Shown here piece after piece: positions 16,243 through 21,383 of a stretch of DNA of 64,000 nt; position 1 is the stretch's first letter; each line of letters begins with the position of its first letter. Made by a program: the position numbers and the translations under genes. The notes beneath the pieces are model-generated. The model ran no database searches, was not told the origin of the DNA, and saw only the letters and a list, made by a program, of their open reading frames with translations. Source of the DNA: Escherichia coli (lineage in GTDB: Bacteria > Pseudomonadota > Gammaproteobacteria > Enterobacterales > Enterobacteriaceae); assembly GCF_024502345.1 (NCBI RefSeq), contig NZ_JALDNN010000001.1; one strand, written 5' to 3'.

Positions 16243-16649
16243 TCATGTCTGTGACGCTAAAGTAACAAAGTATTCACCTTATGTCCATACAGGTTTTGAT
16301 TGAAATCATGAAACTGTGCACATTTTAACAACTTGACATATATAACGTTTCAAAGTTGTAACTATGCACAAATGTTAAATTTACCCATCAAGGGGTGAGA
16401 TTAACAGAATTGAAACGAAAAAATATTTCCTCTGAACCGATTCACCAAGCAACAAAACGCATAACAATTCAATTATGTGAATTAATATGTAAAATGAATG
16501 TTCAGGGAAGGAGAGAAAGGTAGTATTTACCTATGTTTTCTTTTTACATTGCTTATTATCACTGCAATCGCCACCGTAACCTTCTCGTAGCGAAAATCAT
16601 CACTTAACCAGAACGTGATGATTTTCAGGTGACAGATTCTGTTTAGAGT

Positions 16650-16886
16650 TCATTCTGAATCTTTGAACAAAGGCAATCCTTGCGAACGCCGCCATTCTTT
16701 GACGATTTTCAGGATGTTTTCAGGTTTACCATCTTCTGGGGAATTAGGATAGAAAATGGGATCTCCCTTTTTAGGATGTTCAGTAATTTTAATGAAATGA
16801 TCCACTAAGGTATCGAGATATTTTTCTAATTTTTTCCCTTTTAGGGATTTATCTTTGCTAGTTGCATTTACTATCTCCTCAAGCAT
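16650..16886 (-). pseudogene. Orphan Im7/Im9-family DNase immunity gene copy 3, apparently frameshifted near its 5' end (78-aa remnant)
   Basis: Conserved C-terminal ENILKIVKEWRRSQGLPLFKDS tail; upstream ATG is in a different frame from the conserved TEGEFLEMLEE segment. Confidence 0.5.
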
Positions 16887-16986
16887 TTCAAGAAATTCAC
16901 CTTCTGTGTAAAAATATATTTTAAATCATGCATATACATTATCTCCTGTAGTGAATTTCATCATGTAGTCGAGACGTAACAATCCT

Positions 16987-17175
16987 TTAATTATCAATAT
17001 CATAAATTTCGCCACCACATTCAATCGCAACACTATGATATATATGGAATTCTTCAACAATTTCCTTAGATCCATAATGCCAACCTTCAAGAGGCGCTTT
17101 TGCGATTAATCCTTGTTTTATACGTGTTTGGTTACCAGTTGAAAACTGCGCTATCAACTCCGGATACTGACTCAC
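16987..17175 (-). pseudogene. Orphan C-terminal fragment of colicin-type HNH DNase toxin, copy 3 (premature stop after DIDN)
   Basis: Matches last part of the 593-aa toxin (PELIAQFS.GNQTRIKQGL); stop interrupts HNH motif; intact tail LHDEIHYRR readable beyond the stop. Confidence 0.55.
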
Positions 17176-17341
17176 CTCCAGCCAAAGGGTATCGGTGAAA
17201 GCGGGAAATTGATAAAATAACCTAATGAGATTTCAGTATTTTACCTGTTTTTTAAGAGCACCCACATTATTATTTTATGTTATTAACATCATCGCATTAG
17301 CCAGACGCGATGATGTTCCATATATAGTTTTATTATCTACT

Positions 17342-17632
17342 TTATTTAGAGTCTTTAAACAAGGGTAGCCCCTGTGAACGCCGCCATTCTTTGACAATTT
17401 TCAGGATGTTTTCAGGTTCATCATCTCCCTTCTTTGCAGGATAGTAGATAAGATCGCTCATCAACGGATGTTGTGTAATTCTGGTAAGATGTTCTTCTAG
17501 ATCATCCCAATATTTGTCAAGCTCTTCCCCTTTTAATTGAGCGTTATCCCCGGTTGGATTTGTAAACTCGCCAAGCAACTCAATGAATTCCCGCTCTGTG
17601 TAATCTTCTATTTTATCTTTAAAATTATACAT
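17342..17632 (-). CDS. Orphan Im7/Im9-family DNase immunity protein (96 aa), duplicate copy B
   Basis: DYTEREF ... HPLMSDLIYYP ... GDD ... KEWRRSQG motifs parallel Im9; identical to 18040..18330. Confidence 0.8.
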   Translation of the reverse strand: MYNFKDKIEDYTEREFIELLGEFTNPTGDNAQLKGEELDKYWDDLEEHLTRITQHPLMSDLIYYPAKKGDDEPENILKIVKEWRRSQGLPLFKDSK

Positions 17633-18330: not shown

Positions 18331-18570
18331 TTAACTATCTCCTGTAATAAATTTCATCATGCAAATGAGGTGTGCCCTCCTTAAATTATCAATATCGTAA
18401 ATTCCGCCACTATATTCAATCGCAACACGATGATCCATGTGGAATTTTTTAACGATTTCTTTAGTGCCATAATGCCAACCTTCAAGTGGTGCTTTTGCGA
18501 TTAATCCTTGTTTTATACGTGTTTGATTACCGCTTGAAAACTGCGCTATCAACTCCGGATACTGACTCAC
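18331..18570 (-). pseudogene. Orphan C-terminal fragment of HNH DNase toxin, duplicate copy A
   Basis: Identical to 17633..17872. Confidence 0.6.
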
Positions 18571-18737
18571 CTCCAGCCAAAGGGTATCGGTAAAAGCGGG
18601 AAAATGATAAAATAACCTAATGAGGCTTCAGTATTTTTACCTGTTTTTTAAGAGCAATCACATTATTATTTTATGTCATTAATATCATCGCATTAGCCAG
18701 ATGCGATGATGTTCCATATATAGTTTTATTATCTACT

Positions 18738-19022
18738 TTATTTAGAGTCTTTAAACAAGGGTAACCCCTGTGAACGCCGCCATTCTTTGACAATTTTCAG
18801 GATGTTTTCAGGCTTATCATCTCCTTGACTTTTAGGGTAGAAAATTAGATCGCTCCCTGACGGATGCTGTGTAATTTCAATAAAATGATCTACTAATGAA
18901 TCCCAGTACATTTCTAGCTCCTTACCTTTTAAGGATTTTCCATCTTTCATAGATGATCTCAATCCGCCTAAAAAATTAAGAAATTCATCCTCGGTATAAT
19001 CCTGGAGCTTTTCTTTAAACAT
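18738..19022 (-). CDS. Cognate immunity protein of the Hcp-DNase toxin (colicin E-type DNase immunity, Im7/Im9 family, 94 aa)
   Basis: Starts 2 nt after toxin stop; DYTEDEF and EHPSGSDLIFYP motifs match Im9 as recalled. Confidence 0.85.
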   Translation of the reverse strand: MFKEKLQDYTEDEFLNFLGGLRSSMKDGKSLKGKELEMYWDSLVDHFIEITQHPSGSDLIFYPKSQGDDKPENILKIVKEWRRSQGLPLFKDSK

Positions 19023-19024
19023 AT

Positions 19025-20806
19025 TTATCTCCTGTAGTGAATCTCATCGTGTAGTCTGGGGGTAACAATTCGTAAATTATCAATATCGTATACGCTGCCG
19101 CCATATTCAATTGCAACACGATGATGTATCTGGAATTTTTTAACTATTTCTTTAGGGCCATAATGCCAACCGTCAATAGGTGCTTTTGCGGTTAATCCTT
19201 GTTTTATACGTGTTTGGTTACCACTTGAAAACTGCGCTATCAACTCCGGATCCTGACTCACCTCCAGCCACAGCGCCTCGCGAAACTCATCAAAGGTTTT
19301 AAACTCCCGTCCGCGCAATTTATCAGCAATATGCGCCGGGATTGGCGCGCCGTTGCCGTTATTGGATACCGACATATCCAGCCAGCGAGTTCCTGATGAA
19401 AGCGGGACGCCGCGCCCTGTTACAACACCAGGCAGCTTTCGCGGATCCTCCTTCAGGTAAACATAGATGGGCTTAATACCGGATCCCGCCGGAAAAACCA
19501 GAATATAATCGTTGAATTCTTTCGGATCAGGAACCGGGAATGGCGGCGTGGTATAGGTATCTGTACCGTCCGGAATCGGCGTCACCAGAATGGTGGGCTG
19601 ATCCAGCGGCGGCCTGTCGTTACCGGTATGGCCCGGAACATTCCCATGTTCCGGATTTTCCGGCGTCCAGGTAATCAGGGGGCCATCGACATCGTGAGCG
19701 GGGGTAAATTCATAACGCTGCGTCTGCTCGTTCCACTGCATGTTCGCCACGCGGACTTTTTCATACGGCGTACCTTCACCCGTATGAACACCATACACCT
19801 GAGGCTTGCCGTGAATATCAGTTCCCCAGAAAAAACGTACCCGGGTGGTGGCGGTACTGCCTGCTAGTGCTTTCTGCCGCAGTTCTTCCTCATACCAGAA
19901 CTCATCACGTCCGGGCACGCGAGCACTGCCCTCGCCCGCAGAGGGAATATACAAAGCAGATGCCAACGCACCGATGTAAGAGCCTCGGGTTGCACTGAGT
20001 ATGCCACTGAGCGACCATTTTCCCCATATTTGAGCCGCCAACACACTACCCGGAAACAGTAGCATGGTTTGAGCTTCTGCGGGTTGCCCGACATCGTTAG
20101 CCTCGGGATGGTGGTATCCACAGCAGTCATCAACCACTGGCTGAGCAAAAATCGCTACTTGACCGAAGTTTTCAGCGGGTTCTTCTGCCGTTCCAGCATC
20201 TGTACATCCCTTCTCCTTCAGACAGGATTTGGCATAGACCGGGTTAACCGCTGGTGAAGAGAGTGGAAGGTTAACAACTGGTAGAGGTTCAGGCTTAAGA
20301 TTACTGGCAGGTGGGCTTTTAGGCGGAATAAATAAGCTATTATAGCCAGCAGGAAAGGTCAACCAGTCAAATTCCGTATTGGCTATTAGATGTTTACATA
20401 ATATGTAGTGATAATCGACAGTTACACATTCGGTAGGAAGATTATTGTCAGAAATGTTTACATGAATAGCAGTTAATGAAGCATTTCTTAGCTGAATATA
20501 ATAATACCGTTCCCAGCGCCCGCTTTTATTTATACGATACAAATCGATTTCAATAAATAACCGCTCATTCTGATTGATGGCATTAGACAGTAGCGGTGAG
20601 CTTTTATCAATGAGTTTGCAAAATTGTAGCCCCTGTAGATTAACGCCATTACCAGTACTGGTAATGGCGTTGGTGAGTGCAAAGGCAAAAATTTCATCTT
20701 CATGGCCAACCTGCCAGCGATTACCAACCGACGCATACGTCCCACAGCCTGAAGAAATATCGCCCTGCTTCTCACCGATTATTCTCAGGTAAACAATATC
20801 GCTCAC
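19025..20806 (-). CDS. Hcp-fused polymorphic toxin: N-terminal Hcp (T6SS tube protein) domain, central linker, C-terminal colicin E7/E9-type HNH DNase domain (593 aa)
   Basis: N-terminus VSDIVYLRIIGEKQGDISSGC ... KLIDKSSPLL resembles Hcp/TssD; C-terminus APIPAHIADKLRGREFKTFDEFREALWLEVSQDPEL ... IHHRVAIEYGGSVYDIDNLRIVTPRLHDEIH is near-collinear with colicin E9 DNase incl. HNH motif; GTG start. Confidence 0.85.
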   Translation of the reverse strand: MSDIVYLRIIGEKQGDISSGCGTYASVGNRWQVGHEDEIFAFALTNAITSTGNGVNLQGLQFCKLIDKSSPLLSNAINQNERLFIEIDLYRINKSGRWERYYYIQLRNASLTAIHVNISDNNLPTECVTVDYHYILCKHLIANTEFDWLTFPAGYNSLFIPPKSPPASNLKPEPLPVVNLPLSSPAVNPVYAKSCLKEKGCTDAGTAEEPAENFGQVAIFAQPVVDDCCGYHHPEANDVGQPAEAQTMLLFPGSVLAAQIWGKWSLSGILSATRGSYIGALASALYIPSAGEGSARVPGRDEFWYEEELRQKALAGSTATTRVRFFWGTDIHGKPQVYGVHTGEGTPYEKVRVANMQWNEQTQRYEFTPAHDVDGPLITWTPENPEHGNVPGHTGNDRPPLDQPTILVTPIPDGTDTYTTPPFPVPDPKEFNDYILVFPAGSGIKPIYVYLKEDPRKLPGVVTGRGVPLSSGTRWLDMSVSNNGNGAPIPAHIADKLRGREFKTFDEFREALWLEVSQDPELIAQFSSGNQTRIKQGLTAKAPIDGWHYGPKEIVKKFQIHHRVAIEYGGSVYDIDNLRIVTPRLHDEIHYRR

Positions 20807-21383
20807 TTTATTTTATTCCCGTTTATCCTTAACTTATTTCCATTAAATAGAAAACTTATTTCTCGATCAATTATAAACGCTTTTAATGAAAAATCATTTC
20901 TATTACTTAACGTTTTCACTCATCTCGCAATATTATATTTAAATACTTACGTTACAAGCCCACTGCATTATTAACATCTATTTATTTTTATATGGCATTT
21001 CGTAAGATTATCGTGCTGGTACCTAAGGCATGTTGTTCAGCAGGCAAATAAATCCGGTTTATATACTCTAAATAATTCGAGTTGCAGCACATGTAACTTG
21101 AAGAATGACAAGTATAGCTAGTTAAAACAGCATGTTATCCTACTTAAAGTATCTATAAAATGTGAAAAAAACTTACAATTGGTTTTTTTTTATCCAAAAA
21201 ATCAACGCATCTACATAAAGCAGGTGCATTCCCGGGCACATACCATTATCTTGTGATAGTTAAAAGTAGCATTATCATAATTCAGTTACATGAAACGTAA
21301 AGAAATCAATACAACAAACGGAATTGCAAACTTACACACGCATCACTGCGTAGATCAAAAAAACAATCACCGCACGAGGTTTC

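Follow-up and report, generated by a model that had tools for sequence, protein, structure and literature searches.

What is the AT-rich block of DNA that lies between the core genes pdhR and aroP in this Escherichia coli genome, and how could it have reached that place with no mobility genes of its own? The block occupies positions 16243-21383 of a stretch of 64,000 nucleotides from contig NZ_JALDNN010000001.1 (assembly GCF_024502345.1); this whole stretch is called the window below. An initial annotation had described the block as a horizontally acquired island, likely silenced by H-NS, whose effector would depend on a type VI secretion system (T6SS). We consider it very probable that this block is PAIusp, a small genomic islet of E. 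coli that carries usp and imu genes, because the domain architecture of its toxin, the family of its immunity proteins, the identity to the E. coli type-strain proteins (96-98% per domain for Usp, 100% for imu1) and the position between aroP and pdhR all agree. Every usp-positive genome that we fetched has usp at this position, which is also the published location of PAIusp (PMC7142922; Rihtar 2020).

The island-specific DNA amounts to 4921 bp with a G+C content of 0.398, is bracketed by pdhR on the minus strand and aroP on the plus strand (Table 1), and has no tRNA, mobility open reading frames (ORFs) or terminal repeats. Translation of pdhR starts at the ATG at 16194, and the longer version in the ORF list, with a TTG start at 16227, is not the true one. 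Apart from usp, the imu genes and relics of DNase-coding sequence, the interval contains only shadow ORFs within usp. In the PGAP annotation of the FDAARGOS_943 island, which is 99.6-100% identical, the entries are limited to 'tssD', two hypothetical proteins and three bacteriocin immunity proteins. The site of PAIusp, its low G+C content, the missing mobility genes, the control by H-NS and TyrR and the Hcp-ET nature of the toxin are already in the literature (2000-2020), and as a discovery the identification carries small weight. The useful outcome lies in two corrections, namely that AT-rich flanks are no proof of foreign origin and that the 'spacers' between the immunity genes are relic toxin tips. 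Support is also added for spread by recombination only and for a cassette-type switching of toxin tips, both of which the primary usp literature left open.

The toxin gene has the layout of an Hcp-ET effector: an N-terminal Hcp/TssD domain, a C-terminal DNase and an adjoining immunity gene, imu1. Pfam places T6SS_HCP at residues 28-139, Pyocin_S at 309-450 and Col-Pyo_DNase at 460-591, and the Hcp domain scores 124.7 bits against the NCBIfam TssD model TIGR03344, for which the cutoff is 58.9. The DNase matches the structures of klebicin G, pyocin AP41 and colicins E9 and E7 in the PDB, and its H-N-H motif is intact (IHHRVAIEYGGSVYDIDNLRIVTPRLHDEIH). Usp has been characterized as a non-specific HNH nuclease that requires its HH pair for activity and that is bound and inhibited by OrfU1 (PMC3685522). 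In the T6SS literature the same protein is Hcp-ET3-4, or UTI89_C0121 (PMC6730261, summarising Ma et al. 2017); according to that review, it is antibacterial and all three immunity genes help to neutralise it. Judging from these domains and publications, the DNase tip would degrade DNA in the recipient cell. The Imu proteins would shield the producer and its kin, and the extra imu genes may guard against sister usp alleles. There are four imu-type genes in the interval, one of them duplicated and one frameshifted, and all match PF01320. The imu1 protein in addition matches the structures of the pyocin AP41 immunity protein, Im7 and Im9.

Downstream of imu1, the array consists of tandem modules of ~698 bp that form large internal direct repeats. 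A single base (17368) of 698 distinguishes the unit at 17342-18039 from that at 18040-18737. The duplication of the module comprising imu2 and a relic is thus very recent, and gives this allele its four imu genes. The array of FDAARGOS_943 has one unit fewer, and four-imu variants occur in other complete genomes. Compared with the intact 96-aa gene of FDAARGOS_943, the imu3-type gene at 16650-16933 has lost 7 bp (one TAAAATA unit), which shifts the frame after codon 4 and leaves an ORF of 78 aa at 16650-16886. At the far end of the array, the copy of repeat family D1 at 16547-16846 is 61% identical to the inter-module DNA.

The initial annotation had taken the DNA between the immunity genes for spacer. 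In each module, however, ~240 bp of it is homologous to the last ~77 codons of usp, starting at the codons for 'LWLEVS'. Alignment and translation thus replace the earlier description: the inter-imu DNA consists of the degraded 3' termini of usp alleles that were displaced, with an imu gene after each. All three DNase relics are inactivated, two by a change of HH to DH together with a 1-bp frameshift, and one by a change of HH to YH together with an in-frame stop. We propose that the common 'LWLEVS...' junction and the invariant 3' ends of the imu genes would let recombination swap toxin tips, whereupon a swapped-out tip and its immunity gene would be pushed downstream of usp.

Comparison with strain Nissle 1917 supports the exchange of toxin tips at usp. 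The usp gene of Nissle 1917 matches this usp up to about nucleotide 1485, with 0-7 mismatches per 99 nt, while over the last ~300 nt the mismatches rise to 13, 35 and 20 per 99 nt. The gene order in Nissle 1917 is usp with the other tip, an imu3-type gene, and then an intact orphan copy of the tip found in this window, followed by imu1. A linkage of uspI with orfU1 and of uspII with orfU2 has been published (PMC3685522). The orphan uspI-type DNase tip of Nissle 1917 (positions 2810-3046 of that locus) retains the HH motif and the full C-terminus and has imu1 next to it, which is direct evidence of tip displacement.

Next, we asked what the base composition says about the origin of the islet. 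Outside the interval, 581 windows of 400 bp had a G+C content of 0.524 (standard deviation 0.039), and the value for the whole 64-kb window was 0.5135. The AT-richness reported earlier was borne out, with 0.339 in the flank next to pdhR (16243-16649), 0.310 in the flank next to aroP (20807-21383), 0.360 in the array of imu genes and relics (16650-19024) and 0.396 over the entire interval. Elsewhere in the window, G+C fell below 0.42 per 400 bp only in windows starting at 55801 and at 59601-61301. The latter run overlaps the other main AT-rich stretch, the leuO region (59786-61430; down to 0.29 per 400 bp), which is core DNA; at its counterpart, FDAARGOS_943 has an IS1 element and no annotated leuO. 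G+C at third codon positions (GC3) is 0.60-0.64 in core genes compared with 0.32-0.37 in the imu genes and 0.449 in usp. Within usp, GC3 is 0.376 in the Hcp part, 0.497 in the middle and 0.422 in the DNase, and the central 930 bp (codons 150-459) have a G+C content of 0.533 and are not AT-rich. The overall values of 48.5% for usp and 36-38.5% for the imu genes stand beside published ones of 49% and 36-38% (PMC7142922).

The AT-richness of the flanks is nevertheless uninformative on foreign origin, because the island-free aroP-pdhR spacer of K-12 (540 bp) has a G+C content of 0.350 and is as AT-rich as the flanks, and because part of each flank, ~235 bp in all, is native core promoter DNA (16243-16375, 99.6% identical to K-12, and 21297-21383, 97.5%). 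The leuO region likewise combines core status with low G+C. A horizontal origin of the usp and imu genes themselves is supported by their GC3 deficit and by the fact that no more than 1058 of 5426 E. coli genomes have them. Thus the conclusion of horizontal acquisition in the initial annotation is supported for the genes, on grounds of GC3 and patchy presence, while its argument from AT-rich flanks does not. Universal presence in the species, which would have spoken against acquisition, was not seen.

We then examined how the islet joins the core genome. Identity to K-12 falls abruptly at 16375 and resumes at 21297, so that 4921 bp have taken the place of 272 bp, which is not a clean insertion. 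The pdhR promoter region is conserved in Superficieibacter to the same point, 16375 (GCACAAATGT), and the junctions are identical in all four E. coli usp-positive loci compared. Just inside both junctions, the DNA retains similarity to the K-12 spacer. On the left (16401-16546), the local alignment scores 20, compared with at most 17 for shuffled sequence, and includes an exact TGAACCGATTCAC block; on the right (21173-21296, including the -10 element of the promoter P3), the corresponding scores are 36 and 17. A global alignment of the K-12 spacer with the interval, using cheap gap extension, gave a meaningless scatter of tiny blocks and was replaced by these local alignments with shuffle controls.

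No tRNA or tmRNA was found in the 64-kb window, and no integrase or transposase ORF in the interval, by either the ORF list or the annotation of FDAARGOS_943. The best end-to-end direct repeat (family D9) is 16 nt at 81% identity, which is at chance level. The Rfam search returned nothing inside the island and PADLOC no match to a defence system. The statement that integrase, transposase, tRNA and direct-repeat ends are lacking therefore stands, and the absence of integrase, tRNA and direct repeats has been published for PAIusp as well (PMC7142922). These results make it highly improbable that the islet inserted at a specific attachment site in the aroP-pdhR spacer by means of an integrase or transposase either supplied in trans or lost since then. 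Such an insertion would account for the identical site in several genera, a 'specific integration site' is named as an alternative in PMC7142922, and other Hcp-ET islets also lie in core spacers, beside gltA/sdhAB and thiPQ. Yet in addition to the missing enzymes, tRNA and terminal direct or inverted repeats, the exchange of 272 bp for 4921 bp left no target duplication, the sequence just within each junction is homologous to the native spacer, though diverged, and no plasmid copies occur among complete E. coli genomes. As an observation in its own right, Citrobacter sp. On2M (7001-9304) and MGYG-HGUT-00110 (7001-8638) carry full-length or tip-swapped Usp-like Hcp fusions as orphan islets. These lie in core spacers beside gltA/sdhAB and thiPQ/araB, where the neighbouring genes that were checked belong to the core and none has a T6SS or mobility function.

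Among complete E. coli genomes, usp is present in 1058 of 5426 (19.5%), always on the chromosome and never on a plasmid. At least 80% of the present island is found in 948 of the 1058, and usp-negative genomes have a uniform K-12-type empty site of 2742 bp. Although the island is nearly identical to that of FDAARGOS_943, the adjoining aroP is only 97.8-98.5% identical. The aroP alleles of E. coli form a patchwork of blocks of 91-100% identity. The best match to the core flanks (1-16200 and 21384-34000) among the 5426 genomes was 98.8-99.1%, with none reaching at least 99.5%; either the lineage of this strain is poorly represented or the region is highly recombined. In a scan of one genome per species by exact peptide words, which returned no E. 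coli or S. bongori locus, Superficieibacter sp. 1612_C1 had the order ampE-GPH-aroP-usp-pdhR-aceE. The metagenome-assembled Enterobacteriaceae genome UBA5654 had ampE-GPH-aroP-usp-imu on a contig that ends before pdhR. The comparison with Salmonella rests on PMC7142922. The usp leader and the usp-linked P3 region of this window are closer to those of Superficieibacter than to K-12, and there is no sign that aroP coding DNA was transferred together with the island, all E. coli aroP alleles being ~80-85% identical to the Superficieibacter aroP.

We propose that the islet may behave as a presence/absence haplotype of the aroP-pdhR spacer that would move by homologous recombination in the flanking core DNA. 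Spread of this kind, with crossovers at or near the island edges, fits the sequence comparisons. The earlier suggestion of acquisition by homologous recombination can be retained to that extent: the steps in identity, the mosaicism of the flanks and the use of this site in other genera all fit it, and the evidence is indirect.

The authors of PMC7142922 left the question of origin open and considered a single ancient acquisition possible. Under this alternative, usp and imu would already have resided in the aroP-pdhR spacer of the ancestor of Escherichia, Salmonella and their relatives and have mostly been lost since, leaving the 272-bp scar of the K-12 type, and their composition would reflect selection on toxin and immunity genes. 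The same site in Superficieibacter sp. 1612_C1 and the neighbouring aroP in UBA5654 agree with this, as does the diverged homology that the K-12-specific spacer keeps to both island flanks. The Superficieibacter copy, moreover, is decaying, being truncated at residue 406, frameshifted and without imu genes. We nonetheless regard long residence as rather unlikely. Only 19.5% of E. coli genomes carry usp, over such a time amelioration should have raised a GC3 of 0.32-0.45, and two spacer haplotypes ~30-35% apart within one species lie far above the core divergence of E. coli. Furthermore, an island 99.6-100% identical to that of FDAARGOS_943 next to an aroP that differs by ~2% requires recent recombinational exchange. 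An ancient origin and later recombinational spread are compatible and not mutually exclusive. A broader reading that combines them, and which we put forward tentatively and with some doubt, is that the spacer exists as two very old haplotypes, usp-bearing and empty, which Escherichia, Salmonella, Superficieibacter and UBA5654 have in common. Homologous recombination would then have been the sole means by which the islet, with its own version of P3, persisted and spread over tens of millions of years, and the relic-imu modules would be a fossil record of tip replacements as in contact-dependent growth inhibition (CDI) and Rhs systems. If true, this would provide a compact model for the spread of a polymorphic toxin locus free of mobility genes.

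How the gene would be expressed can be approached through published alleles. Transcription of other usp alleles starts at the divergent P3 promoter of aroP, with TyrR as activator and H-NS as repressor; support for the role of H-NS comes from hns mutants, temperature dependence and a gel shift on an S. bongori fragment (PMC7142922). In the present allele, the -10 element of P3 is conserved at 21240-21245 (ATACCA on the plus strand, TGGTAT on the usp strand), and matches to the TyrR box are weak, with 3-4 mismatches. The usp leader is ~70-75% identical to that of Superficieibacter and contains an H-NS motif with one mismatch (TCGATCAATT, at 20863). Sites resembling the H-NS motif number 3.7 per kb in the interval compared with 1.3 per kb elsewhere. 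H-NS would repress usp through the AT-rich leader and TyrR would activate P3, and the likely H-NS silencing proposed in the initial annotation is backed by the experiments on other usp alleles (PMC7142922). Consensus scans for promoters and terminators gave no excess over shuffled sequence (15 vs 15.6 and 4 vs 4.6, respectively), and no LexA box was found upstream of usp in 20807-21383.

The leader also contains an extra 66-bp repeat at 21059-21124, between P3 and usp, which is present in full length at this site only in FDAARGOS_943 and 944. Most E. coli genomes have copies ~89% identical at 1-4 further places, which makes it a small dispersed repeat. It is possibly a short element resembling the enterobacterial repetitive intergenic consensus (ERIC). 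A hairpin-forming ERIC-like structure was considered and rejected, the fold being no more stable than those of shuffled sequences (z = 0.14).

It remains to ask what would deliver the toxin. The window was said to hold no T6SS, and in agreement with this no T6SS structural genes are found in it; it is collinear with the annotated cueO-leuA DNA of FDAARGOS_943, which has none either, leuO being the only piece of the window unmatched there. The Hcp domain would let Usp be loaded into, and fired by, a T6SS encoded elsewhere in the genome. Such dependence is plausible, given this domain and the reviews of Ma et al. 2017. FDAARGOS_943, the closest island match, has a full T6SS cluster beside tRNA-Asp (aspV), 117-151 kb from pdhR. 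The terminal hcp gene of the cluster encodes a protein that shares 40% identity with the Hcp domain of Usp.

Besides the uninformative flanks, several points weigh against an H-NS-controlled, T6SS-delivered toxin with exchangeable tips. The H-NS and TyrR data come from alleles of a uropathogenic E. coli (UPEC) isolate and of S. bongori (PMC7142922), and the present leader has its extra repeat between P3 and usp. With all relics inactivated, tip switching at this locus is impossible without repair. In FDAARGOS_943, IS21 interrupts the tssC gene of the aspV T6SS and a fragment of vgrG adjoins IS600, and the cluster is probably non-functional. In usp-positive Nissle 1917, the first 48 kb of the island beside aspV contain no T6SS genes. 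Finally, in older work purified Usp acted on mammalian cells, and a 2015 review stated that secretion had not yet been demonstrated. On a separate note, the T6SS cluster of FDAARGOS_943 (14191-48173) contains remnants of IS600, IS1 and ISAs1 among its vgrG and Tle1-like effector genes.

These points raise the possibility that Usp is released without a T6SS, as a bacteriocin-like genotoxin that is taken up through its S-pyocin domain or acts on host cells, its Hcp domain being vestigial. Pyocin_S and colicin DNase domains are common to the secreted klebicin G, pyocins and colicins, and relatives lacking Hcp exist in Lelliottia, Siccibacter, Enterobacter and Lonsdalea. The damage to mammalian cells by purified Usp, the secretion unproven in 2015 and the disruption of the aspV T6SS in the proxy genome FDAARGOS_943 by insertion sequences also fit. 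However, an Hcp domain scoring more than twice the TssD cutoff and 40% identical to a cluster Hcp is intact, and the locus has no lysis gene and no upstream LexA box, unlike colicin operons. SPI-21 encodes a VgrG with the same toxin fused to it, and reviews of Ma et al. 2017 report an antibacterial Hcp-ET3-4 and T6SS-dependent delivery of Hcp-ET proteins. We therefore judge release without a T6SS to be improbable, and keep firing by a T6SS encoded elsewhere as the plausible route.

Table 1. Features of the pdhR-aroP region in window coordinates.
Feature	Position	Strand	Basis or remark
pdhR, core gene	15430-16194	-	99.6% identical to K-12; G+C 0.558, GC3 0.620
Native pdhR promoter region, not island DNA	16195-16375	.	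K-12 identity 99.6% up to 16375; G+C 0.354
usp-haplotype spacer, strongly diverged counterpart of the K-12-specific spacer	16376-16546	.	Local alignment; G+C 0.310
Module tail 3' of the last imu gene, with inverted repeat 16596-16628	16547-16649	-	Repeat family D1
imu3-type immunity gene, frameshifted	16650-16933	-	Pfam Colicin_Pyocin PF01320; alignment to FDAARGOS_943
Relic 3 of usp DNase 3' end	16941-17185	-	Alignment and translation; weak match to VPA1263 DNase model
imu2-type immunity gene, copy b	17342-17632	-	PF01320
Relic 2 of usp DNase 3' end	17633-17872	-	HH to DH; 1-bp frameshift before last His
imu2-type immunity gene, copy a	18040-18330	-	PF01320
Relic 1 of usp DNase 3' end	18331-18570	-	HH to DH; 1-bp frameshift; usp homology from LWLEVS codons
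imu1 (orfU1-type), cognate immunity gene of this usp allele	18738-19022	-	PF01320, E=8e-30
usp (= Hcp-ET3-4), 593 aa	19025-20806	-	Hcp, linker, S-type pyocin, colicin-type HNH DNase
usp leader, island-borne, most AT-rich piece	20807-21172	-	G+C 0.287; 66-bp dispersed repeat 21059-21124
Diverged usp-haplotype aroP regulatory region with divergent P3 -10	21173-21296	.	Local alignment to K-12
Native aroP promoter-proximal DNA and 5' untranslated region, core	21297-21383	+	97.5% K-12 match resumes at 21297
aroP, core gene, mosaic among E. coli alleles	21384-22757	+	Allele comparison

Two further observations concern the rest of the window. Between aroP and ampE lies a 2.5-kb insert (22791-25290) with genes for a GH43 glycoside hydrolase and, at 22916-24322, a sugar:cation symporter of the GPH family. 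Neither K-12 nor the B2 usp-positive strains have this insert, and among 5426 complete E. coli genomes just 53 carry it. In Superficieibacter and UBA5654 the symporter gene is also found beside aroP, in synteny and at 90-91% amino acid identity. The insert is thus a second presence/absence polymorphism without mobility genes beside aroP. At 40007-40096 on the minus strand, at the chromosomal ftsA-ftsZ junction, there is an Rfam match (105.5 bits) to PssrA, 'plasmid-encoded Shigella sRNA A'.

How does this locus compare with known systems? PAIusp of uropathogenic E. coli was reportedly described by Kurazono in 2000 and Nakano in 2001 as usp with orfU1-3, or imu1-3. The present islet shares with it the site, the 593-aa Usp, an identical imu1, the low G+C content, the P3 -10 element and the lack of integrase, tRNA and repeats. 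It differs in its number of imu genes, which duplication of the imu2 module has raised to four from the two or three in published descriptions, and in its frameshifted imu3 and the 66-bp repeat in the usp leader. Like tRNA-linked pathogenicity islands, it carries accessory virulence or competition genes of deviant base composition. Those islands, however, measure 30-100 kb compared with ~4.9 kb for PAIusp, which has no tRNA, integrase or flanking repeats.

With the Hcp-ET effectors (Hcp-ET3-4 / UTI89_C0121, PMC6730261), Usp shares the N-terminal Hcp domain, the C-terminal Pyocin_S and colicin DNase domains and the several immunity genes, as well as an orphan locus away from any T6SS cluster. 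The nuclease colicins and S-type pyocins (E7/E9 with Im7/Im9, AP41/S2, klebicin G) have a homologous HNH DNase (E=1e-28 to 1e-39) and homologous immunity proteins (E=1e-15 to 1e-20), with the immunity gene directly downstream. In contrast to them, usp is chromosomal and not plasmid-borne, has a promoter controlled by TyrR and H-NS, and encodes an Hcp domain in place of the receptor-binding and translocation domains. In keeping with this, the locus lacks the marks of a colicin or S-pyocin operon, with no LexA box in 20807-21383, no lysis-gene ORF and an N-terminus that is Hcp. The array itself is organized like the orphan arrays known from Rhs systems and CDI (cdiA-CT/cdiI), although at usp the toxin tips are borne by an Hcp fusion and all three orphan tips are inactivated in this window. 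As in those arrays, tandem modules of a 3' toxin fragment and an immunity gene follow downstream from one conserved junction, usp alleles differ only distal to that junction, and an intact displaced tip is preserved in Nissle 1917.

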